From IMG/VR virus record IMGVR_UViG_3300017766_003354, positions 32,001 through 96,000 of that record: 64,000 nt of DNA; one strand, given 5' to 3'. The DNA is from a virus. Shown in pieces: positions 9,381-27,358 of the stretch (positions are counted from its first letter, which is position 1; every line of letters starts with the position of its first letter). The notes below the pieces were generated by a model. It saw only the letters and a program-made list of their open reading frames with translations. It was not told where the DNA came from and made no database searches. A program made the translations under genes and the position numbers.

Positions 9381-9620
9381 ATGAGCCAAAAAACAATAAT
9401 CCGCCATACCTGCGATCACTGTGGCAAAACGCAGGAAGAAGAGCAAACCAACTGGCTAAACACTGGAGGCCCGAAAAACTGGTCAGGCTGGGACATTAAA
9501 CAAAAAGGAACAGCTTCTTGTTTCTACGGAACAATGGGGCAATCTGTTGAATTTTGTTGTTATGATTGTGCAATTAAATGGATGAAAGAAAAAATCGAAT
9601 GGCAGCTACTAACGACATAA
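9381..9620 (+). CDS. putative Zn-binding protein
   Basis: CDHC...CCYDC. Confidence 0.65.
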   Translation: MSQKTIIRHTCDHCGKTQEEEQTNWLNTGGPKNWSGWDIKQKGTASCFYGTMGQSVEFCCYDCAIKWMKEKIEWQLLTT

Positions 9621-17884: not shown

Positions 17885-18196
17885 ATGGACAACTTGAATG
17901 ACTTAGAACAAATCCTCGATACGATGATTTCCAAGCAGAAAGAAAAGAAGACAAAAACTTTTGTTGCCCGTTATAAGGGGAAAAACTTGATAATGCGCTC
18001 TGGCAAAAGTAGTTGGAAGCAAACAAATTACGCCAAATCTTCAATTATTCAGCATTTTTGCGGCCCTGAAAGGCGTTATGTTTATCCTGTAGATTGGAAT
18101 AAATTGGGTGAAACCGCAGAAGACCGTAAAAAAAGAAAAGAAGAATTCCGAAAAAAGCTTTTTGAATTGATTGAAATTGTAGAATTAACAGAATGA
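17885..18196 (+). CDS. hypothetical protein
   Basis: ORF. Confidence 0.65.
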   Translation: MDNLNDLEQILDTMISKQKEKKTKTFVARYKGKNLIMRSGKSSWKQTNYAKSSIIQHFCGPERRYVYPVDWNKLGETAEDRKKRKEEFRKKLFELIEIVELTE

Positions 18197-18390
18197 CAAC
18201 AAAACAATTAAAACTATCTCTTGATTTGGAAGTTCTTGAATATGCAATCGAAATTTGTCAACTCAGCAAGAGTAACCTTAAAAAAGACGGCTGGAATGCC
18301 GCTTGTGAAAATATTGAGTGTTTTCTCCAAGCGGCAAAAGAAAGATTGCAAATGGGCCTTGATCTTCGGGATTATGCCGTGACTCAATAA
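18193..18390 (+). CDS. hypothetical protein
   Basis: Coupled ORF. Confidence 0.6.
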   Translation: MTTKQLKLSLDLEVLEYAIEICQLSKSNLKKDGWNAACENIECFLQAAKERLQMGLDLRDYAVTQ

Positions 18391-18395
18391 TTAAT

Positions 18396-18968
18396 ATGAA
18401 CGCAGTAACCGCAAACACAAAAACAACTTTGCTTCTTAATAATGCTTGGCAGCCAATTACGGTTGTCACGGCACGGGCGGCATTTCAGCATTTGCACAAG
18501 AGAAGAATCTCTGCATTGGATAAAGACAGCAATATCTTTCATTCTTTGGACTCTTGGAATACTTTGGGGGTTTATTACGATGATCAGCCGTTTCTAAGAA
18601 GTGCTCATGCTGCTTGGCCGATTCCTACTGTAATCGTAGTAAATAGTAAATTCTTCAGAAAGCCGAAAAAGAGCAAACTAACTCTTTTTGATCTAGCGAA
18701 ACTGTGCGATTATACTTGCCAGTATTGCTTTGAAAAGTTTCCGATCAAGCAATTAAGTATTGACCACGTAAACCCTCGATCACGCGGAGGCGAAGACACT
18801 CATGATAACCGCGTGCTATCGTGTGTGCGCTGTAATCGCGCAAAAAGTAATTTTACTCCATGGCTAGATAAAAACGGCAAAATTCCAACCCCACCGTCGA
18901 TCCCCGCGTTGATGTTGAATGCGGAAAAAATTCGTCCCGAATGGAATAGTTTTGTGAATAATCATTAA
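18396..18968 (+). CDS. HNH endonuclease (McrA-like)
   Basis: TLLLNNAWQPI, CQYC, SIDHVNPRSRGG, N.V.SC..CN..K. Confidence 0.9.
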   Translation: MNAVTANTKTTLLLNNAWQPITVVTARAAFQHLHKRRISALDKDSNIFHSLDSWNTLGVYYDDQPFLRSAHAAWPIPTVIVVNSKFFRKPKKSKLTLFDLAKLCDYTCQYCFEKFPIKQLSIDHVNPRSRGGEDTHDNRVLSCVRCNRAKSNFTPWLDKNGKIPTPPSIPALMLNAEKIRPEWNSFVNNH

Positions 18969-19021
18969 TTTATTGAATTTTATTTTTCCCATTTGATAAT
19001 CCTGTGTAAGAAACAAAGAAC

Positions 19022-19084
19022 ATGCGATATTTTATTTCAACACTCTGCCCGAAATCCGCCCAAAATTGGGAGGATGGAGTGTAA
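19022..19084 (+). CDS. attenuator leader peptide MRYFISTLCPKSAQNWEDGV (19 different amino acids)
   Basis: Read directly; follows GTGTAA at 19004 and overlaps alternative hairpins. Confidence 0.8.
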   Translation: MRYFISTLCPKSAQNWEDGV

Positions 19085-19143
19085 GTTGGGGTCAAATAAA
19101 GTTTTCTTCTTTTTGGCCCAGCACTCAAAACGCTGGGTTTTTT
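19040..19143 (+). promoter_or_regulatory. ribosome-dependent transcription attenuator
   Basis: acactc/gagtgt hairpin; gagtg+gttggggtcaaa pairing with tttggcccagcactc; cccagc/gctggg plus T tract. Confidence 0.75.
19117..19143 (+). terminator. intrinsic terminator of the attenuator
   Basis: cccagc-actcaaaac-gctggg-tttttt. Confidence 0.8.
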
Positions 19144-19172
19144 GTTAATCTGAAAAATTTCTCAAAAACAGG

Positions 19173-19200
19173 TTGACAAAATCCGAAAATCAAGTAAGTT
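19173..19200 (+). promoter_or_regulatory. sigma70-type promoter
   Basis: TTGACA...TAAGTT. Confidence 0.45.
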
Positions 19201-19239
19201 CCTCTCAGACAAAACAAATCCGCTCGCAAGACGAAAGTT

Positions 19240-19378
19240 TTAAGAGTGGCCGTGACGGTGGAAATGGTTCGGCCCCACCCCTTGAGGTTTAAAAAGCCTT
19301 CGGGATCGAGATTTTCTCTGGCAATCTTTCCGCTTGCCAATCGAGGAGCCATCCTTGAGAAAGTTTTATTCTTCTTGA
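19240..19378 (+). ncRNA. unassigned multi-stem RNA
   Basis: Closing tggc/gcca; internal ggtgg/ccacc, gaggt/gcctt, tggcaa/ttgcca. Confidence 0.45.
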
Positions 19379-19533
19379 GTCTTCACAAATTCGAAGAAAA
19401 GACAGCGGATCGGTTTTTGGCTCTTGACAATAGCTGGTGATTCGGCAACGATACGGAACCTTAGCGAACACTGGCGGAACTAGACGAATTAATCACTCGT
19501 TATAACTGCTGGTTAGTAGCTTAAATTTTCAAT

Positions 19534-19608
19534 GGTGCTATAGTTTAAAAGTAAGAACTCCTGACTTTCAATCAGAGGATCTCGGAGCGTTACCGAGTAG
19601 CACTTCCA
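19534..19608 (+). tRNA. tRNA-Glu(TTC)
   Basis: ctga-ctTTCaa-tcag; CCA. Confidence 0.85.
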
Positions 19609-19616
19609 TTTTTTAT

Positions 19617-19692
19617 CAGGGTATGGTGTAACTTGGTAGCACGATACATTTGGGATGTATTAGTTTCGGCTCAAATCCGAATATCCTGACCA
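19617..19692 (+). tRNA. tRNA-Pro(TGG)
   Basis: ataca-ttTGGga-tgtat; CCA. Confidence 0.9.
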
Positions 19693-19703
19693 ATTTATAA
19701 ATT

Positions 19704-19882
19704 CAGACAAAGGGGCAGTTCGAATCTGCGGTATTCCTTGAGGATATAAGGTGTAATGGATGCACGTTGTCGCAAATTCTTGAGGATCGGTTCGATTCCG
19801 ATATTGGTGTAACGGTAGCACGCAAGCAACACCCTAAGAACGGTTCGATTCCGTATAAATAGTGTAACGGCAGCACGGGGGC
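19704..19882 (+). ncRNA. three tandem permuted tRNA-elbow (T arm then D arm) modules, YrlA/Y-RNA-like
   Basis: GGTTCGA-type T arms each followed by a GTGTAA(T/C)GG..GCAC D arm; closing stems gacaa/ttgtc, cttg/caag, ccct/gggg. Confidence 0.7.
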
Positions 19883-19892
19883 AATTTTCAAT

Positions 19893-19969
19893 AGCGCGGA
19901 GGACAAGAAGGTTAGTCACTAGGCTCATAACCTAGGTTCTGGTGGATTCGAGCGCCACCTGCGCAACCA
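19893..19969 (+). tRNA. tRNA-Met(CAT), initiator-like
   Basis: ctagg-ctCATaa-cctag; 1-72 mismatch; CCA. Confidence 0.85.
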
Positions 19970-19977
19970 TTTTCAAT

Positions 19978-20053
19978 TGGACAGCAAGCATATAAGTGTG
20001 CAAGAGTCTCATACGCTCTCATCGTATCGGTGCAATTCCGATCTGTCCTACCA
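19978..20053 (+). tRNA. tRNA-Met/Ile2(CAT)
   Basis: agagt-ctCATac-gctct; CCA. Confidence 0.8.
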
Positions 20054-20058
20054 ATTTT

Positions 20059-20143
20059 CGCTGCATATCAATAAACGAATTCGCGATTAGTTTTTTGAGA
20101 AGGTGGAATGGGTTGGGCTAAAGCAAATGACCAACCGCAGCGA
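20059..20143 (+). ncRNA. unassigned structured RNA
   Basis: tcgctgc/gcagcga terminal stem, ggttgg/ccaacc. Confidence 0.4.
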
Positions 20144-20153
20144 TTAATTCAAA

Positions 20154-20206
20154 CGCCTCCTGCTGGCTAGCGCATCGGGATCATGACCTGATATGGGAGG
20201 CGACCA
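20154..20206 (+). ncRNA. 53-nt T-armless mini-tRNA with CAT loop and CCA
   Basis: cgcctcc/ggaggcg-A-CCA; tcggg-atCATga-cctga. Confidence 0.6.
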
Positions 20207-20218
20207 ATTTATACATCT

Positions 20219-20290
20219 TGAAGAAGACTGGTTCGAATCCAGCGCAACTACCCGTAGGTGGGCGCGTAGTGTAATGGCAGCACACTTCTA
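20219..20290 (+). ncRNA. fourth permuted tRNA-elbow module (YrlA-like)
   Basis: gaag...ctggttcgaatccag, loop-closed stem, tagtgtaatggcagcac, cttc. Confidence 0.65.
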
Positions 20291-20300
20291 TTGTTTTTAT

Positions 20301-20383
20301 GTGAGTCTAAAGCTAGTGGCTCTAGCAAGAAGTCTGTAAAACTTCTCCTTCGGGGCGAGGATCGAAACCTCAGACTCACACCA
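20301..20383 (+). tRNA. tRNA-Tyr(GTA)
   Basis: gaagt-ctGTAaa-acttc; V arm; CCA. Confidence 0.9.
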
Positions 20384-20387
20384 CTTT

Positions 20388-20521
20388 TTGCTAAAGCATC
20401 TTTGGCTTGATGCTGTCCCACAGGACTATATCGCATAACCTACGAACAAAGGCCAAGTTCTATAGGGGTATAGCGGGAAACCCGATCAAGTCGGGTGAGG
20501 CGGTTCAATTCCGCAGGCAAA
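20388..20521 (+). ncRNA. enlarged tRNA-like RNA with T arm and no recognisable anticodon
   Basis: agcatc/gatgct, acccga/tcgggt, gcgg-ttcaatt-ccgc. Confidence 0.5.
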
Positions 20522-20530
20522 ATTTTTAAT

Positions 20531-20605
20531 GGCCCGTTCGTTTAGTGTAAAGGACCGCGTGCTTCTAACGCGCAGACAGAGGTTAGATTCCTCTACGGGC
20601 TACCA
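20531..20605 (+). tRNA. tRNA-Arg(TCT)
   Basis: gcgtg-ctTCTaa-cgcgc; CCA. Confidence 0.9.
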
Positions 20606-20611
20606 ATTTAT

Positions 20612-20699
20612 GGAACATTAACCCCTGAGCTTGGGGCGTGTCTTGGAAAGACAATGGCGGCTGAAAGGTCGTGGGCTTGGAGTGCTCAGTGTTCCTCCA
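20612..20699 (+). tRNA. tRNA-Ser(GGA)
   Basis: tgtc-ttGGAaa-gaca; long V arm; CCA. Confidence 0.8.
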
Positions 20700-20704
20700 C
20701 TTTT

Positions 20705-20795
20705 GGATTGTTAATTCAGACGGCTCTGAACGCTGTTTCGAAAGCAGTTGGTTCCGCAAAAACGGGATAGGGATCGACCCCCTAGCAATCCTCCA
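20705..20795 (+). tRNA. tRNA-Ser(CGA)
   Basis: ctgt-ttCGAaa-gcag; V arm; CCA. Confidence 0.85.
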
Positions 20796-20797
20796 AT

Positions 20798-20889
20798 GGG
20801 TAATTTATCGCAACGGCTTGCGACTCTGCTTTGAAACCAGATGATGGGGTTAGTAGCCTCATAGGGATCGACACCCTAGTTGCCCTCCA
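20798..20889 (+). tRNA. tRNA-Ser(TGA)
   Basis: ttTGAaa loop; V arm; CCA. Confidence 0.85.
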
Positions 20890-20920
20890 CTTTTAGCCAG
20901 TAAAACCGTCAAAAAAGTCA

Positions 20921-20949
20921 TTGACAAAATCGTGACAAGCGACTAGGAT
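20921..20949 (+). promoter_or_regulatory. internal sigma70-type promoter in tRNA array
   Basis: TTGACA-N17-TAGGAT. Confidence 0.6.
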
Positions 20950-20987
20950 TGTGGCGCAACGCAAGACTAGCTGGTTAATTCTTCAAA

Positions 20988-21064
20988 ACACCATCAGACT
21001 GTGGGCAAGTCGAGAACCCTCCAAAAGTTCTGCTTAAAGGATTCGATTTCCTTGTGGTGTGCCA
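20988..21064 (+). tRNA. tRNA-Trp(CCA), atypical anticodon arm
   Basis: agaac-c-ctCCAaa-a-gttct; G73; CCA. Confidence 0.75.
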
Positions 21065-21072
21065 ATTTTAAT

Positions 21073-21143
21073 GACCTGATGATGTAACGACAGCATACTG
21101 CGCGGGAGCGTAGAAGAGGGGCTAGAATCCCCAACGGTCGCTA
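21073..21143 (+). pseudogene. tRNA-like element with GGGA tetraloop in place of an anticodon loop
   Basis: D and T arms present; ctgcgc-ggga-gcgtag; weak acceptor; ends CTA. Confidence 0.5.
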
Positions 21144-21152
21144 ATTTTCAAT

Positions 21153-21237
21153 GGGCGTGTGAGAGAATGGTTATCTAGCGGTCTTTTAAACCGAGGGCGA
21201 AAGCCCAACGTGGGTTCAATCCCCACCGCGCCTACCA
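21153..21237 (+). tRNA. tRNA-Lys(TTT) with long variable arm
   Basis: cggt-ctTTTaa-accg; gggc-gaaa-gccc; CCA. Confidence 0.85.
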
Positions 21238-21243
21238 ATTTTA

Positions 21244-21330
21244 GCAAGTGTGACAGAATGATCATGTATCCGTCTCTTAAACGGCAGAGAGAAATCTCTA
21301 ATGTGGGTTTGAATCCCACCGCTTGCACCA
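21244..21330 (+). tRNA. tRNA-Lys(CTT) with long variable arm
   Basis: ccgt-ctCTTaa-acgg; agaga-gaaa-tctct; CCA. Confidence 0.85.
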
Positions 21331-21341
21331 AAATTTTTCAT

Positions 21342-21431
21342 AGTATAGTGGCGGAATTGGAAGACGCGCTCGCCTGTTAAGTGAGAGTTCCGAAAGGACA
21401 CCTGTAGGATCGTGGCCTACCTATACTGCCA
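21342..21431 (+). tRNA. tRNA-Asn(GTT) with long variable arm and Leu-like D arm
   Basis: ctcgc-ctGTTaa-gtgag; tcc-gaaa-gga; G73; CCA. Confidence 0.85.
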
Positions 21432-21437
21432 ATTTTT

Positions 21438-21513
21438 CCTGTCTGAGCAAGTCTGGTGATTGCGCTTGGTTGAAGCCCAAGTTAATCGTGTTCGATCCAC
21501 GGAGACAGGACCA
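21438..21513 (+). tRNA. tRNA-Phe(GAA)
   Basis: cttgg-ttGAAgc-ccaag; CCA. Confidence 0.85.
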
Positions 21514-21519
21514 TTTCAA

Positions 21520-21610
21520 TGAGCGGCGTATGACAGCCTTTCAACGCTTAAATCATATCTGCGTTGGAGCCCAAGAAAATAAGCTGAATAACTACGAGGT
21601 ATCCCGCTCA
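21520..21610 (+). ncRNA. unassigned structured RNA
   Basis: tgagcgg/ccgctca, cagc/gctg, caacgc/gcgttg. Confidence 0.45.
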
Positions 21611-21635
21611 CCCTTTTCTAGCAAGTGTCGCATAG

Positions 21636-22133
21636 TCATTTGCGTTTACCTGAAAACGTCAAAGTTTGCGAATGACAATTTGGACAAAGAAACCTTAAAT
21701 TACTCAAGCGATTATCATTATTAATTCCATTGATGTGATCTAATTGTAGAGAAAGCGGTTTATTATTGTAGGTTCCTTGATTGCCGCATTCAGCGCATTC
21801 ATACTTCCAACCAAAATCTTGTAATAAACGACTTTTTATATTGTTGCCACTAACATAAGAAGAGTTTTCCACAAAAATATCTTCATTGTCTCGCTTGTTA
21901 ATTGGGCTTAACTTCTTTGCTTGTTCTTGTTTAAAGTTCTTCTTGTTGGCAGTAAAAAGAGTTAAGTCAAAATTTTCTTCCTTGATTCGTTTTTTAATTG
22001 TCCTGTGGTTTCCATTATAACCACCAAAACCTAATTTCTTTAAAATTTCGACAATAGACGAGCTTTCATTTAATAACCTTTGAAAATCATCGAAACTCGT
22101 TGTCCACACTATACTTTTTCTCGTAATCTTCAT
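21636..22133 (-). CDS. HNH homing-type endonuclease inserted in tRNA array
   Basis: CAECG...LQLDHINGINNDNRLSNLRFLCPNCHSQT; start MKITRK 8 nt after GTGTAA. Confidence 0.9.
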   Translation of the reverse strand: MKITRKSIVWTTSFDDFQRLLNESSSIVEILKKLGFGGYNGNHRTIKKRIKEENFDLTLFTANKKNFKQEQAKKLSPINKRDNEDIFVENSSYVSGNNIKSRLLQDFGWKYECAECGNQGTYNNKPLSLQLDHINGINNDNRLSNLRFLCPNCHSQTLTFSGKRK

Positions 22134-22174
22134 GTGGTATATTACACATAAAGACACAATACGGGACTTTTCAT

Positions 22175-22250
22175 GCGTCATTCGCCTAATGGTATGGCAC
22201 TTCGCTTCCAACGAAGAACAGCATCAGTTCGATTCTGATATGGCGCACCA
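22175..22250 (+). tRNA. tRNA-Gly(TCC)
   Basis: cttcg-ctTCCaa-cgaag; A73; CCA. Confidence 0.88.
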
Positions 22251-22254
22251 ATTT

Positions 22255-22437
22255 TCTATCAAAACCCTGAAAAGGTGGCGAAGTTTGTAAGCCAGTCATG
22301 GAAAGGCGCTAGGTGGGTCAAAGAATAAAGTTGGGAAACCTTAATCGGCGTGAAACCCGAACGTGCCTAGTAGCCCATGCGGAGTCACTATCTAAACCTC
22401 ACTCTGTCAAGAGTAAGTTGCGGACTCTATTGATAGA
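22255..22437 (+). ncRNA. unassigned ~180 nt multibranch RNA
   Basis: tctatcaa/ttgataga closing stem; ctagg/cctag, catg, gagtc/gactc stems. Confidence 0.5.
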
Positions 22438-22445
22438 ATTTTTAT

Positions 22446-22522
22446 CCGAGAGTAGATTTAACTGGCAAAATCCCTCCCTGTGAAGGAGCCTAATGCGGGT
22501 TCGACTCCCGCCTCGCGGACCA
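22446..22522 (+). tRNA. tRNA-His(GTG), lacks G-1/C73
   Basis: ctcc-ctGTGaa-ggag; A73; CCA. Confidence 0.82.
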
Positions 22523-22588
22523 TTTCTTTCTTGACAGTCGATTGGACGCCTCTTAATATGCGAACCAGCCAATCGCTTCCCTTTTAAT

Positions 22589-22765
22589 ATGAACACCCCA
22601 AACAACAAAGCCCTAGAAGTGCGCCGAACAAATCAAAAATTCCGCCGACTTTTCAATAGCTCGAAAGACATTGGGGGCAAGCTTTCTTCTTTGCACGTCA
22701 ATCGCGCCCATTGGGGCTCTGGATACAGTAAAAAAGACTTGCCAAAAGATTCGGATATGCAATAA
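22589..22765 (+). CDS. small basic protein
   Basis: Manually read MNTPNNKALEVRRTNQKFRR...; TTGACA promoter at 22531. Confidence 0.45.
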   Translation: MNTPNNKALEVRRTNQKFRRLFNSSKDIGGKLSSLHVNRAHWGSGYSKKDLPKDSDMQ

Positions 22766-22770
22766 TTTCA

Positions 22771-22845
22771 ATCGGGGTGGAGCAGTAAGGTAGATGCAAC
22801 CTGCTCATAACGGGTAAATAGCGGGTTCGAGTCCCGTCGCCCCCA
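22771..22845 (+). pseudogene. chimeric/disrupted tRNA-Met(CAT)
   Basis: Initiator-like 5' half, acceptor unpaired, no CCA; 3' half overlaps HNH gene end. Confidence 0.65.
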
Positions 22846-23200
22846 TTAAGCTCGTATCATGTATTTCCATGTGGCAATTAGAACAAAGAAGATCACATTT
22901 CTTAAACTCCAACAAAATCTTCTCCCAGCCTTGATTTGATAATTTTCTCAAATCTAAAGTAAAAGACTTTTCTTTTGGATTCCTATGGTGAAAACATAAA
23001 GCCCTCAAGCTTTTTGAGTATCCACAAATTTGACATCCTCCACCAGACATTTCAATCAAAAGCCTTTTTCTTTCGTTACCTTTTTTGTTTTGGTTTGCGT
23101 AATTTTGATGGTTCTTATTGGATAAGTGATTTTTACATTTTTGAGAACACCATTTTCTTTGACCTCCAGTTAATTCTTTATTACAGTTTTGACAGTTCAT
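22805..23200 (-). CDS. HNH endonuclease with N-terminal Zn ribbon
   Basis: CQNC...WCS.KC; CQICG...LCFHHRNP..K...CDLLCSNCHMEIH. Confidence 0.88.
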   Translation of the reverse strand: MNCQNCNKELTGGQRKWCSQKCKNHLSNKNHQNYANQNKKGNERKRLLIEMSGGGCQICGYSKSLRALCFHHRNPKEKSFTLDLRKLSNQGWEKILLEFKKCDLLCSNCHMEIHDTSLMGATGLEPAIYPL

Positions 23201-23252
23201 ATTAAATGATTACACTCAGATTATGAATATAGTCATAATCTTTTATTTTTAT

Positions 23253-23332
23253 GCAGCAGTATTCCCTCTCCCTACGAAGGAGGTGAAAGGATAATTGGAT
23301 ACATGTAGGTTCGATGCCTATCTGCTGCACCA
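23253..23332 (+). tRNA. tRNA-Arg(ACG)-like with displaced D arm
   Basis: gcagcag/ctgctgc-A-CCA; ctcc-ctACGaa-ggag; no D arm 5' of anticodon. Confidence 0.7.
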
Positions 23333-23342
23333 ATTTTCAAAT

Positions 23343-23418
23343 GGCCCTATAGCTGAGTAGGATTTAGCACATGCTTGATAAGCGTGAGACACAGGTTCAA
23401 TCCCTGTTAGGGCTACCA
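23343..23418 (+). tRNA. tRNA-Ile(GAT)
   Basis: catgc-ttGATaa-gcgtg; CCA. Confidence 0.9.
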
Positions 23419-23498
23419 TTTTTACTTATTACGAAGAATCTAAAATAGCTGGCATTGTGACCGCTTGAAGTAGTCGGTAGTAAGTAACTAATTTTTAT

Positions 23499-23592
23499 GG
23501 GTCATGGGGCTGCTTGGGGTGGCCATCTCACTTGCAATGAGAAGACATATCGAAAGATATACAGTTGGGTTCAAATCCCAAATGATCCACCA
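23499..23592 (+). tRNA. tRNA-Ala(TGC) with long variable arm
   Basis: G3:U70; tctca-ctTGCaa-tgaga; atatc-gaaa-gatat; CCA. Confidence 0.85.
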
Positions 23593-23602
23593 GTTTCAAA
23601 AA

Positions 23603-23678
23603 GCATCGTTGGCTCGACTGTTTAGGCGGGTTCCTGCAAAGTTCCTTTAAGGGGGTTAGATTCCCTCACGATGCTCCA
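23603..23678 (+). tRNA. tRNA-Cys(GCA)
   Basis: ctGCAaa loop; U73; CCA. Confidence 0.82.
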
Positions 23679-23720
23679 ATTTTCTCTTGACTTTCTCTGT
23701 TCTTTTGCTAAAAACAAAAC

Positions 23721-23933
23721 ATGACAGCAGAACATCTACAAGAACAAGACGAAATGCACGAAGCGCAGAAACAACAAGTGATCATCGAATCTCTTTCTTC
23801 TCTGCTAAGTGAATGTTTAGAATCAATGAACCAAGATAACTCGTTCAAAGTTCTCGGTATTGAAAATAACAAGTTGATTGTTGAATTTGATATTGTGGAA
23901 ATTGATGATGAGTTTATGTTTCAAGGATATTAA
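23721..23933 (+). CDS. small acidic protein, paralog of 17439..17612
   Basis: LL.ECLE..NQ..SF.V.GI...K..V.FDIVEI...F.GY; own promoter at 23687. Confidence 0.7.
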   Translation: MTAEHLQEQDEMHEAQKQQVIIESLSSLLSECLESMNQDNSFKVLGIENNKLIVEFDIVEIDDEFMFQGY

Positions 23934-23941
23934 TTTCAAAT

Positions 23942-24031
23942 AATGAGCGCCCAAAAGCAAAACGGACTATTTGTGCATCTAGGCACAGGATCGGGGTCTT
24001 GGCGACTTACTCGCCAGTAGTATTGCTCATT
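23942..24031 (+). ncRNA. unassigned structured RNA
   Basis: aatgagc/gctcatt, tgtgc/gcaca, tggcga/tcgcca. Confidence 0.45.
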
Positions 24032-24042
24032 GCCTTTTTAAT

Positions 24043-24116
24043 GGGGGATTGATGTAATGGTAGCCTGACTGATTTACATTCAGTTTGCGGGGATTCGACT
24101 TCCTCATCCCCTACCA
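24043..24116 (+). tRNA. tRNA-Val(TAC)
   Basis: actga-ttTACat-tcagt; CCA. Confidence 0.88.
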
Positions 24117-24124
24117 ATTTTTAT

Positions 24125-24209
24125 GGTAACGAAGCCGAAGTGGTTTCAGGCGCTACCCTGTCAAGGTAGGAACGAAAGTTCATAGCGAGTTCGATCCTCG
24201 TCGTTACCG
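24125..24209 (+). tRNA. tRNA-Asp(GTC) with long variable arm
   Basis: ctacc-ctGTCaa-ggtag; gaac-gaaa-gttc; G73; ends CCC. Confidence 0.82.
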
Positions 24210-24219
24210 CCCTTTTCAT

Positions 24220-24297
24220 GCATCAGTATGCTATTGGTATCGCAGCAACGTCGAGAGCGTTGTGTTTTTGTCGGTTCGACTCCGATCTGATGCACCA
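24220..24297 (+). tRNA. tRNA-Leu(GAG)-like, short V region, C33
   Basis: caacg-tcGAGag-cgttg; CCA. Confidence 0.65.
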
Positions 24298-24306
24298 AAT
24301 TTTTAT

Positions 24307-24391
24307 CGGCGCGTGGGTTAATCGAGAACGGCAGATCACAGATACTTAGAATATCTGACCCTTGGAGGTTCAATTCCTCTCGCGCCGACCA
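24307..24391 (+). tRNA. tRNA-Leu(TAG), non-canonical fold
   Basis: agata-ctTAGaa-tatct; no V hairpin; CCA. Confidence 0.8.
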
Positions 24392-24398
24392 TTTTTTA

Positions 24399-24480
24399 CG
24401 GCATGTGGGTTAATCGGGAATAGCAGACTACACTTACTCAAAATAAGTGACCCTTGAAGGTGCAAGTCCTTTCATGCCGA
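24399..24480 (+). tRNA. tRNA-Leu(CAA), non-canonical fold
   Basis: actta-ctCAAaa-taagt; no V hairpin; no encoded CCA. Confidence 0.78.
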
Positions 24481-24491
24481 CTTTTTTTAAT

Positions 24492-24577
24492 GGTATAGTG
24501 GATAAGCGAAATTGGCGACAAGCGAAAGATTTAAAATCTTTTATCCTCTGTGGGTTCGAATCCCACCTATACTACCA
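24492..24577 (+). tRNA. tRNA-Leu(TAA), non-canonical fold
   Basis: aaaga-ttTAAaa-tcttt; no V hairpin; CCA. Confidence 0.8.
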
Positions 24578-24583
24578 ATTCAT

Positions 24584-24669
24584 GGATCGTAAATCAACAA
24601 GGCGTTGACTCTTCCTGCTAAGAAGGTGGAGGTTTAAAAAACCTTTCAGTTCAAATCTGATGCGATCCT
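24584..24669 (+). tRNA. tRNA-Ser(GCT)
   Basis: cttc-ctGCTaa-gaag; V arm; no encoded CCA. Confidence 0.78.
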
Positions 24670-24706
24670 CTCTTCCCTCTCTTGACTCATTCGTGTAAAG
24701 AGAAAT

Positions 24707-25117
24707 GTGACTGTAAATGATAAAGGAAATATTGGGTTGACTAAAGTAATGTCTGATTTAACTGAAAAGGGTTATTCGGTTTTTTTACCGATAGCAGATA
24801 CTAGTTGCGTAGATTTAATTGCGGCTGACGAAGGAATGAATATAAAAAAGATACAAATTAAATATCGCAAAGTTAATAAATTCGGAGTGATTTGTGTTCA
24901 AACTCGCTCTGTTGTCAACGGAAAAAGTATCCCCATTCCTTTAGAACAAATTGATCTTTGGGCTATCTATTGCCCCGATACAAAGCAAATTTATTATTTA
25001 TCTTCTGATATTTTGAAAGGAAAGTCTGTTCTTTCTTTGCGGGTAGATAAAGAAGTAAGAAAATGCGAACAAACAACTTTCGCAGACCAATTCACCGATA
25101 TTAAGAAAGTTTGGTGA
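24707..25117 (+). CDS. PD-(D/E)XK homing-type endonuclease
   Basis: KGNIG...GY.VF.P..D...DLI...KKIQIKYR...ID.WAIYCPDT. Confidence 0.82.
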   Translation: MTVNDKGNIGLTKVMSDLTEKGYSVFLPIADTSCVDLIAADEGMNIKKIQIKYRKVNKFGVICVQTRSVVNGKSIPIPLEQIDLWAIYCPDTKQIYYLSSDILKGKSVLSLRVDKEVRKCEQTTFADQFTDIKKVW

Positions 25118-25143
25118 TTGTCATTAAAACTTTAAATTTCCCA

Positions 25144-25217
25144 GCCTTCATAGTTCAATGGTAGAACTTCAGTTTTGTAATCTGAAAACCCCAGTTCGAT
25201 TCTGGGTGTCGGCTCCA
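25144..25217 (+). tRNA. tRNA-Thr(TGT)
   Basis: ttTGTaa loop; CCA; two acceptor mismatches. Confidence 0.8.
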
Positions 25218-25223
25218 CTTTCT

Positions 25224-25297
25224 GGTCTATTCGTCTAGTGATAGGACTCTCCCCTCGTAAGGTAGAAGCGGGTGTTTGATCCACCCATAGACCTCCA
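25224..25297 (+). tRNA. tRNA-Thr(CGT)
   Basis: ctCGTaa loop; ggtctat/atagacc; CCA. Confidence 0.78.
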
Positions 25298-25303
25298 GTT
25301 TTA

Positions 25304-25382
25304 GCGAATGTCGCATAGTGGCCTATTGCACTACATTGCCAATGTAGAATAAACGCAGGTTCAAATCCTGTCATTCGCACCA
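25304..25382 (+). tRNA. tRNA-Gly(GCC)
   Basis: ctaca-ttGCCaa-tgtag; A73; CCA. Confidence 0.88.
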
Positions 25383-25390
25383 ATTTCAAC

Positions 25391-25465
25391 GGACCATAAG
25401 CTTTGATGTTGAAGCCCTTCTTGGTATGAAGGAAGAACGCAGTTAGAATCTGCGGTGGTCCTCCA
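25391..25465 (+). tRNA. tRNA-Thr(GGT)
   Basis: ccttc-ttGGTat-gaagg; CCA. Confidence 0.8.
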
Positions 25466-25517
25466 CTTTCTAGAAATTTTCTGTTGACTCATTGATAAAA
25501 ATCCCTATACTGCTGCC

Positions 25518-26723
25518 ATGCAAGTAATAAAAAACATCCCTGTCTGGGGAGAAGTTCAAGAAAATGCGGTTGATCAAATGGCTAACGCTCTTAATTGTGG
25601 AGCTTATAAGGCTGCTTTGATGGGGGATCATCATTTGGGCTATTCTGTTCCTGTAGGGGGAGTTATCGCTTATAAGAATGCTATTTCTCCTTCTGGTGTT
25701 GGATTTGATATTGCTTGCGGCAATAAAGCAGTTCTTACTGATGCTTTTCTTCCTGACGTTCTTCCATTTATTGAAAAAATAATGGATGATGTTTTTCGCA
25801 ACATTTCTTTCGGAATTGGAAGAGTTTCAAACTCAAAACATATTGTTGGTCAAAAAGACCCAAGTGATCACCCCTTGTTTAATGACGAAGCTTGGAATAT
25901 TCCTGCAATTTCTGGATACAAAGACTTGGCCCGAAATCAACTAGGAACAGTTGGTTCTGGCAATCACTATGTTGATATATTTGCCGATAATTTTGGTCGT
26001 ATTTGGATTGGAGTCCACTTTGGTTCTCGCGGATTAGGACACAAAACAGCTTCTCATTACATTAAAGAAGGCGGTGGAACAGACGGAATGTTTGTTAATC
26101 CTGTTGTTCTTGATGCTGATTCAGAATTGGGTAAAGAATATATTGCTGCAATGAATCTTGCTGGACGATATGCCTATGCTGGTCGTGATTGGGTTTGCGA
26201 AGAAGTCGCTCGTATCTTGGGGGCTAATATTTTAGACTCTGTTCATAATCATCATAACTTCGCTTGGCTCGAAAACCATGAAGGAGAAGATCTGTGGGTA
26301 GTCCGCAAAGGAGCAACTCCAGCTTTCCCAAATCAAAAAGGATTCGTTGGAGGAACGATGGGCGAAAATTCTGTAATCTTAGAAGGAATTAATCATCTAG
26401 AATGCAAAACTTCTTTATATTCTACTGTCCACGGAGCAGGTCGCGTTATGTCACGAACTGAAGCTGCGGGCAAATCAAAATGGAAACAAGGAAAGAAAAC
26501 CCGTATTTCTGAAGGCAAAGTTTCTCAAGAAATGATGAATGATTGGATTTCTAAAAAGGGAGTCTGCCTTCGTGGCGCGGGGGTTGATGAATCTCCTCAT
26601 TGCTATAAAAGACTTGACGAAGTTCTTGAAGCCCACACAAATACAATTAAAATCTTACATAGTCTGACTCCTATCGGTGTCGCAATGGCAGGAAATGAAG
26701 TTTTCGACCCATATAAAGATTAG
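25518..26723 (+). CDS. rtcB: RtcB RNA 3'-phosphate/5'-OH ligase
   Basis: MGDHHLGY, GVGFDIACG, LGTVGSGNHY, VHFGSRGLG, HNHHNFAW, RKGATPA, HGAGRVMSR, DESP..YK. Confidence 0.95.
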   Translation: MQVIKNIPVWGEVQENAVDQMANALNCGAYKAALMGDHHLGYSVPVGGVIAYKNAISPSGVGFDIACGNKAVLTDAFLPDVLPFIEKIMDDVFRNISFGIGRVSNSKHIVGQKDPSDHPLFNDEAWNIPAISGYKDLARNQLGTVGSGNHYVDIFADNFGRIWIGVHFGSRGLGHKTASHYIKEGGGTDGMFVNPVVLDADSELGKEYIAAMNLAGRYAYAGRDWVCEEVARILGANILDSVHNHHNFAWLENHEGEDLWVVRKGATPAFPNQKGFVGGTMGENSVILEGINHLECKTSLYSTVHGAGRVMSRTEAAGKSKWKQGKKTRISEGKVSQEMMNDWISKKGVCLRGAGVDESPHCYKRLDEVLEAHTNTIKILHSLTPIGVAMAGNEVFDPYKD

Positions 26724-26742
26724 TCTAGTTAAAACACCCATA

Positions 26743-26796
26743 GCCCCGCAGCTTTATTCTTCTACGGAGGATTAAACGCTCGCGGGGCATTTTTTA
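26743..26796 (+). terminator. intrinsic terminator after rtcB
   Basis: gccccgc...gcggggc plus T tract. Confidence 0.65.
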
Positions 26797-26845
26797 TTGA
26801 AAATTCAATAAATTTCGGGTGTAAGAAAGGGTAGTTCTCCTTAAA

Positions 26846-27358
26846 ATGACTTCCCCCGAATTAAACGACATAATCATTACTGTTGCCTCTCAACTTCTTA
26901 TCGTTGGAACTGGATTAATCGCGGCTTATTTTAAATTGCGATCAGAAGTCCAAGCAAAAATCAGCGAAGTCAAAACTCATACCGATGTCACCCTTCAAAA
27001 ATTAAATGGAATGTTGACTTACGTTATCCATTCCTTTGACCGTCCTGCTTGGATTAAAATTGCCACGCAGAGACAAGACGGAGAAGTAGAATTTAGAATG
27101 CTAGAGTTGAATGACTTATATACCGAAACATTTGGGATTTCTCGACACGACTATTTGGGTAAAACAGATTTAGAAGTTGGATGGGATAAAGCGACTTCTG
27201 AAAGAATGAGGAATCACGATTTGCAAGTTTGGGCTTCTGGAGAACCAGCAACTTTTGAAGAGCAAGTTTCTGGAAACAATCTTAAATTCCGAAAAATTCG
27301 TGTTCAATCTCCAAACGGAACTTTAAAAGGTGTTATGGGATATTGCGTGAATTCTTGA
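26846..27358 (+). CDS. membrane-anchored PAS-fold protein
   Basis: N-terminal TM; PAWIK...N..Y...FG.S..DYLGKTD.E...D.QV..SG. Confidence 0.75.
   Translation: MTSPELNDIIITVASQLLIVGTGLIAAYFKLRSEVQAKISEVKTHTDVTLQKLNGMLTYVIHSFDRPAWIKIATQRQDGEVEFRMLELNDLYTETFGISRHDYLGKTDLEVGWDKATSERMRNHDLQVWASGEPATFEEQVSGNNLKFRKIRVQSPNGTLKGVMGYCVNS

Follow-up and report, generated by a model that had tools for sequence, protein, structure and literature searches.

A conserved phage cassette upstream of a tRNA array, read as a leader-peptide attenuator with near-maximal amino acid variety

A cassette located between an HNH-domain gene and a large tRNA array in the genome of an uncultured phage is best explained, with a probability that we put at roughly 0.6, as a ribosome-mediated leader-peptide transcription attenuator that would gauge the decoding of nearly all amino acids. 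As a part of this explanation, the best reading of the leader is that it has been selected for as many different amino acids as its 20–22 codons allow. An attenuator was already proposed in the first-pass annotation of this DNA, and that interpretation is now supported computationally by the conservation of the cassette, the covariation of its mutually exclusive pairings, a folding model in which a ribosome masks part of the RNA, and a residue diversity that is specific to one reading frame.

The stretch of DNA analyzed here (the window, 64,000 nucleotides) corresponds to bases 32001–96000 of a phage record that is 146,905 bp long, has direct terminal repeats, and was obtained from a freshwater metagenome. 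Genes of rIIA/rIIB, of a DnaE-type polymerase, of a UvsX-like recombinase, and of ribonucleotide reductase are present; no cultured relative of the phage was found. The elements of the locus described below are all on the plus strand. The HNH-domain gene (18396–18968, assigned by Pfam) is the conserved upstream neighbor of both the cassette and the tRNA array. The array itself (19534–25465) contains 18 genes according to ARAGORN with default settings and about 32 with relaxed (85%) thresholds, so that many of its tRNAs are non-canonical. Although the leader has a Gln codon, tRNA-Gln was not found in the array, either with ARAGORN or by BLAST with the tRNA-Gln genes of relatives. Two wastewater runs labelled metagenomic RNA-Seq include contigs of ~143 nt that cover window positions 19746–19895 with 1–4 mismatches; the RNA in this part of the array is thus conserved in relatives and may be expressed. 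The gene of the RNA ligase RtcB (25518–26723) is located 3′ of the array. Its control by the attenuator, which formed part of the original proposal, is unsupported, since a further promoter-like site is present before it, at 25484.

The cassette begins with P1, a sigma-70-like promoter candidate identified in a consensus scan (18973–19000; TTGAAT, 16 nt, GATAAT; 9 of 12 matches), which can be read with TTGAAA and TATAAT- or TATTAT-type hexamers in relatives L111, L113, L118, L119–L121, L124, L127, and L129. The hexamer GTGTAA follows at 19004–19009, 12 nt before the ATG of the leader, and is kept in most relatives. Genome-wide, this hexamer has the distribution of a gene-start motif, with 26 of its 54 copies found 5–14 nt (mostly 8–10) before the start of an ORF of at least 50 residues, compared with 5% for permuted hexamers in that position and no enrichment of its one-mismatch variants. 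The chance of its presence at a random ATG, estimated from its genomic frequency, is about 2e-3. Shine-Dalgarno sites are almost unused by this phage, and no −35 partner of GTGTAA was found. Copies before such ORF starts include those at window positions 24693, 28353, 29562, and 30025 on the plus strand and 22147, 23215, 37857, and 60872 on the minus strand. The motif often occupies gaps of 2–30 nt between genes. Its candidate roles are those of an unusual signal for ribosome binding and of a compact signal for promotion or processing of transcripts. A role as a stop-codon or reinitiation signal was considered and rejected, its TAA closing an upstream long frame in a few cases only.

A second promoter-like element, P2 (19173–19200; TTGACA, 16 nt, TAAGTT), was read from the sequence about 30 nt past the terminator of the cassette. 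Its TTGACA hexamer and the surrounding context are conserved in all relatives, including the leaderless ones, from which it follows that the array can be transcribed without the attenuator and that only transcripts from the upstream promoter P1 would be gated. The first-pass annotation had pointed to this site as a possible bypass, a caution that its conservation in every relative bears out. Conserved together with P2 are the 200–450 nt that separate it from the first tRNA (19173–19533 in the window; also in L122, L165, L166, L170, and L130), the distance from the terminator to the first tRNA being 390 nt in the window. Between P2 and the first tRNA, many relatives, even leaderless ones, have in common the motif ggcagcgagcgccagaag ... 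ggtccgaaagggagatt. Judged by its sequence, this conserved stretch could represent an unknown RNA or a 5′ leader that is processed. It is matched at 19251–19315 and 19415–19523 by short contigs of relatives from another sequencing run. In three runs, such contigs cover stretches neighboring 18970–19250, for which no match was found among them; the leader is covered in the probable source run only, with no RNA run among those listed.

The leader ORF (19022–19084) starts with ATG at 19022 and ends with TAA at 19082–19084, and its 20 codons encode the peptide MRYFISTLCPKSAQNWEDGV. Translation confirms the earlier count of 19 different residues, with Ser present twice (TCA and TCC) and His absent, so that no residue occurs more than twice. 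The probability of about 4e-6 given at that time for a uniform model is arithmetically right (4.4e-6); with the real composition of the window, the probability of at least 19 different residues in 20 codons with Met first is 1.2e-6 per ORF. Among 52,813 stop-free 20-codon windows in six frames, only the one that matches this ATG-to-stop ORF exactly has 19 different residues, whereas 18 are found in three; in 1.26 Mb of other phage DNA, no 20-codon window with 19 different residues is present. The array includes tRNAs that can read at least 16 of the 20 codons of the leader. It had also been stated that the two Ser codons match different tRNAs of the array; the codons are as described, but tRNA-Ser(TGA) at 20798 and tRNA-Ser(GGA) at 20612 are detected only at the relaxed ARAGORN threshold. 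Matching of codons with anticodons was dropped as evidence for a link between the leader and the array, since it has no discriminating power when the array is nearly complete.

The RNA of the cassette can adopt several mutually exclusive structures. In the untranslated RNA, region 1 (19028–19046) pairs with 19075–19101 in an extended helix (−22 kcal/mol) that is 87% paired in seven sequences. Its 19040–19046/19075–19081 part encloses an inner hairpin (19054–19075), located inside the ORF at codons 11–18. The antiterminator, formed by regions 2 and 3 (19077–19126, −16.7 kcal/mol), with a core in which 19089–19096 pairs with 19112–19119, starts within the last codons and the stop codon of the leader and sequesters the 5′ arm of the terminator. 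The intrinsic terminator, formed in turn by regions 3 and 4 (19115–19143, −12 kcal/mol), consists of the stem 19115–19122/19132–19139 with a 9-nt loop and is completed by a run of six T. All of the alternative helices named in the first-pass annotation were recovered by folding, including CCCAGC (19117–19122) with GCTGGG (19132–19137), although the position of the T run had to be corrected to 19138–19143. A pairing of 19012–19021 with the T run that appeared in the first minimum free energy fold is not conserved (28% paired) and was taken as an A/U artefact. Rfam places no family at the leader, and it gives no T-box or cis-regulatory match at E up to 1 within 18000–27000, where there are only weak chance hits on tRNA genes.

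To model the presence of a ribosome, the RNA was deleted as far as 13 nt beyond the first base of the codon in the A-site. With the A-site at any of codons 1–18, the probability of the antiterminator is 0.84–1.0, whereas with the A-site at codon 19, codon 20, or the stop codon, the terminator forms with a probability of at least 0.98. The naked RNA, in which region 1 is paired with 19075–19101, also favors the terminator (0.97). The constrained folding that had been suggested as a check therefore yields a three-state logic. When the terminator was kept and 19022–19114 was dinucleotide-shuffled (n = 400), the first two states were obtained in two cases and all three in none. The shuffles bear on the notion that the leader is merely a fortuitous ORF at the terminator of the upstream operon, a notion to which the position of the terminator, 150 nt past the HNH stop codon, would lend itself, and for which it could be argued that with very many windows examined a 1e-6 event is expected somewhere. 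With 0 of 400 shuffles reproducing the behavior of the cassette, and with frame, motif, promoter, and diversity all conserved in relatives, as described below, we consider that explanation hardly credible.

A search of a phage collection with the cassette DNA gave no match, and exact-pattern scans of viral contigs identified one relative only. Searches with RtcB (80 loci), NADAR (26 loci), and DNA polymerase (one locus, 41%) led to relatives that are not syntenic, and the six RtcB loci with tRNA arrays have no comparable leader. Relatives that carry the cassette were reached via the HNH gene, yielding 15 peptide variants and 17 DNA variants from uncultured aquatic phages of ~140 kb, in all of which the cassette is flanked by the HNH gene on one side and the array on the other. 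The HNH protein has 100 relatives at 28–87% identity (88 of them at 53% or above), many on contigs of 85–146 kb. In the loci fetched, the HNH gene is usually located just upstream of the tRNA array, and its usual position directly 5′ of the array in more than 40 related contigs (53–87% identity), which is not that of a roaming homing gene, suggests on sequence grounds that it may be functionally tied to the array. Genes of GIY-YIG/NUMOD3-type endonucleases are inserted beside it in L166 (3097–3783) and L109 (7832–8659), one such insertion separating the HNH gene from the leader cassette, and the region is a hot spot of insertion.

The same succession of P1, GTGTAA, an ORF of 20–22 codons, a hairpin, the terminator, P2, and 200–450 nt before tRNA-Glu follows the HNH gene in a subclade of relatives whose HNH identity is at least about 60%, whereas in more distant relatives P2 directly follows the HNH gene and the leader is absent. 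The leader ORFs are located at 9609–9671 in L113, 3607–3669 in L118, 9607–9669 in L111, 3622–3687 in L127, 3618–3683 in L122, 3108–3173 in L163, 9757–9822 in L109, 3780–3845 in L123, 3148–3216 in L164, 3145–3210 in L165, 3834–3899 in L166, 3128–3190 in L172, 3960–4022 in L129, and 3461–3526 in L167. The leader of L109 has no ATG and could start only with GTG or TTG. In L109 (9610–9753) and L123 (3609–3779), lipoprotein-like ORFs of 47 and 56 residues, with a signal peptide and a lipobox, are found between P1/GTGTAA and the leader. The frame of the leader is open in all 15 peptide variants, with stops in the other two frames in most of the diverged ones, and the lengths of 20, 21, or 22 codons mean that insertions and deletions come in threes.

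The alternative pairings are conserved as well. In 17 aligned DNA variants (alignment A3), which are not independent samples, the core of the antiterminator is 83% paired, compared with 16–63% when the partner is slid; double changes are seen in four of its six pairs, and none of 500 shuffles reaches its covariation score. The terminator is 98% paired in the same 17 sequences, with double changes in three pairs. The two structures share columns 131–135, so that the same bases have two conserved partners. In the inner hairpin, compensatory double changes are found in two pairs, one of which converts Trp to Cys in relatives. At equilibrium, 7 of the 17 variants clearly show the logic of stall and stop and 3 show it in part, whereas in the other 7 (L119, L109, L172, L164, L165, L129, and L167) it is absent and the antiterminator is not favored; the terminator is stronger in five of these, and in L119 the helix is weakened. 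A switch in these seven would have to be kinetic, and the trp attenuator also works kinetically. If the nascent RNA is cut before the 3′ arm of the terminator, a hairpin of −10 to −16 kcal/mol, beginning 0–7 nt past the stop codon and sequestering the terminator arm, is predicted in all 17 variants, and in the model it is mostly lost when a ribosome occupies the stop codon. The T run starts 51–59 nt past the stop codon in all relatives.

Conserved hairpins behind a promoter and before a terminator also form the classic architecture of small RNA genes, and P1 might, together with the terminator and a structured RNA of ~135 nt, constitute an independent, possibly dual-function sRNA gene, with the array driven by P2, which is conserved immediately downstream and on which the distant relatives manage alone. 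A plain terminator, however, needs no covarying alternative partner for its 5′ arm, nor would such a gene account for a stop codon fixed 0–7 nt before the hairpin, for the frame that is open in every variant with its indels in threes, or for a diversity that depends on the frame. Together with the lack of any matching Rfam family, these features make an sRNA gene improbable.

The attenuator reading is in turn strengthened by the composition of the leaders. The 15 variants contain 19, 18, 17, 16, 16, 18, 17, 17, 17, 19, 19, 17, 17, 14, and 12 different residues (mean 16.9), with 16–19 in the 13 variants of the main clade and ordinary values, 14 and 12, in the two most distant ones, L129 and L167. 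Diverse but poorly conserved short ORFs, for which a search of related loci had been recommended, are thus found there as parts of the same cassette, with those two exceptions. In frames +1 and +2, these nucleotides encode 12.6 and 13.3 different residues on average, compared with a random expectation of 12.4 ± 1.4, and the difference between in-frame and out-of-frame diversity has a Wilcoxon P of about 5e-4, although the variants are not independent. Since the diversity is specific to the frame, it is a property of the encoded peptide and not of base composition or RNA structure. It is also retained while the residues themselves turn over. The leaders of L164 and L165 share only 6–7 residues with that of the window, yet each has 19 different ones, for which the probability, if the changed positions were random, is 2e-5 to 5e-5; the corresponding values are 1.6e-3 for L122 and 0.013 for L172. 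Enrichment of codons for a sensed amino acid is the opposite of what is seen in most variants, with no residue present more than three times in 12 of the 15. In a signature scan of 2.3 Mb of phage DNA with 7,981 ATG ORFs of 18–24 codons, 131 ORFs have at least 16 different residues and 20 of these also precede a terminator; all but one of the 20, namely 19, belong to this cassette family, each 282–1076 nt before a tRNA.

A different role for a conserved ORF with its own promoter and start motif would be to encode a functional micro-protein of 20 residues, with the terminator merely ending its gene. The N terminus is indeed semi-conserved (Met, a basic residue that is Arg, His, or Lys in most variants, Tyr, and Ser or Phe), and an Asn-Cys/Trp-Glu patch is conserved. 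These conserved residues, however, coincide with paired RNA, and the replacement of Trp by Cys is the compensatory change noted above. The identity among the leader peptides falls to 30–50%, and their variable sites (4/2/7 and 14/11/13 by codon position) have no clear third-position bias, so that the peptide sequence is weakly constrained. Near-maximal residue diversity is, to our knowledge, not a property of small proteins, and we regard a micro-protein as highly improbable.

The proposed attenuator would operate as follows. Transcription would begin at P1 (18973–19000), and the 20-codon ORF would be translated while RNA polymerase moves on. A ribosome arriving early enough at the last codons or at the stop codon would cover 19077–19097, preventing the formation of the antiterminator, so that the terminator (19115–19143) would form and the transcript would end. 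A ribosome delayed anywhere within roughly the first 18 codons would instead allow the antiterminator (19077–19126) to form first and to hold the 5′ arm of the terminator, and transcription would then run past P2 into the tRNA genes. If the RNA were not translated at all, region 1 would fold onto region 2, again leading to termination. With nearly every amino acid represented in the leader, the switch would report slow decoding of almost any codon class, and through it transcription from P1 would supplement the basal transcription of the array from P2. Translation of the ORF, its coupling to RNA polymerase, the direction of the regulation, and its physiological trigger are what we infer from the arrangement of these elements.

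We can further speculate, at somewhat less than even odds, that the leader serves as a minimal test strip for the tRNA pool, with one codon of each kind and a residue set kept near its maximum by selection, such that any single stalled codon would open P1 transcription into the near-complete tRNA set of the phage. Possible causes of a stall would include attack by host anticodon nucleases, phage-induced decay of host tRNAs, and starvation. If this were true, tRNAs would be replaced on demand, and the recovery of decoding would shut the supply off again by feedback. Compensation of codon usage, replacement of decayed host tRNAs, and escape from tRNA-cleaving defences are the current ideas on the purpose and control of tRNA arrays in large phages; a gauge that ties transcription of the array to failure of decoding would join them in one mutable switch.

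The same attenuator could, however, gauge the overall traffic of ribosomes or inhibition of translation instead of the supply of individual tRNAs, responding to a shortage of ribosomes, to attack on elongation factors, or to ribosome-targeting toxins or antibiotics, in which case a leader with each kind of codon present once would not respond to any single amino acid. As would suit such a gauge, the leader shows no enrichment of any codon class, and the residue sets of the leaders do not mirror the tRNA sets of the arrays, the amino acids missing from the former not tracking the tRNAs missing from the latter. Most leaders, for example, have no His, yet tRNA-His is present in the arrays, and the leader of L111 has no Ala, Asp, His, or Trp codons although its array has those tRNAs. 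The uORF of whiB7 is believed to be triggered by general translational stalling and is the basis of a response to antibiotics (PMC10274678). In that leader, single codons nevertheless bring about sensing that is specific for one amino acid (PMC10274678). A pure gauge of speed would need no set composition, whereas the diversity seen here is specific to the frame and is kept through turnover, and the genes regulated are tRNAs. A response to ribosome traffic alone consequently appears unlikely to us, and the gauge of decoding remains the preferred reading.

Comparison of the cassette with known regulatory leaders supports its description as a case of leader-peptide attenuation with codon variety in place of codon runs. 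The trpL, hisL, leuL, pheL, and thrL leaders, as well as the multivalent leader of ilvGMEDA, contain codon runs that correspond to the products of the controlled operon, one to three amino acids. The phage cassette has the same 1:2/2:3/3:4 logic, our models reproducing both the masking of region 2 by a ribosome at the stop codon and the termination of RNA that is not translated; unlike these leaders, that of the phage avoids repeats, the regulated genes are tRNAs, and there is no match to a leader in Rfam. The erm, vmlR, bmrCD, and lmo0919 leaders likewise combine a short ORF with a terminator switch, responding to slowed ribosomes irrespective of the supply of amino acids. Stalling in erm leaders, however, needs a particular nascent peptide and a drug, whereas the phage leader has no conserved peptide signature. 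T-boxes work independently of translation, through direct binding of a single uncharged tRNA. A switch between terminator and antiterminator that links the status of tRNA to genes of the translation apparatus is common to T-boxes and the phage cassette, but no specifier loop or T-box match is present in the latter (18000–27000).

Searches of the literature yielded no description of attenuators ahead of phage tRNA genes, or of phage leaders with all amino acids. The closest likeness is to the whiB7/wblC attenuator of mycobacteria and other actinobacteria, in which a short uORF that includes most amino acids is followed by an antiterminator/terminator pair, and stalling leads to read-through in whiB7 (PMC10274678). 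Reported for whiB7 are induction upon loss of many amino acids, tRNAs, and tRNA synthetases, with knock-downs tied to 18 of the 20 amino acids having this effect, a strongly reduced response to Trp deprivation upon removal of the single Trp codon, and an abolished response to His deprivation upon removal of three His codons (PMC10274678). The results for single codons answer the objection that such codons would sense too weakly. In contrast to the phage cassette, whiB7 is bacterial and controls a transcription factor of drug resistance, and its uORF varies in length by species and is enriched in Ala (PMC10274678), whereas the phage leader has 20–22 codons with almost no repeats and precedes tRNA genes. 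No sequence relationship to the whiB7 leader and no WhiB7-family gene downstream were found, the downstream genes being tRNAs, and the likeness is therefore one of logic only. With its ~170 nt, sigma-70-type promoters, and intrinsic terminator, the cassette should be testable in laboratory bacteria. If the proposed reading is true, leader-peptide attenuation would be used here inversely, with maximal variety of codons as opposed to runs of them, and the principle of single-codon sensing found in whiB7 would extend to viruses and to tRNA genes.
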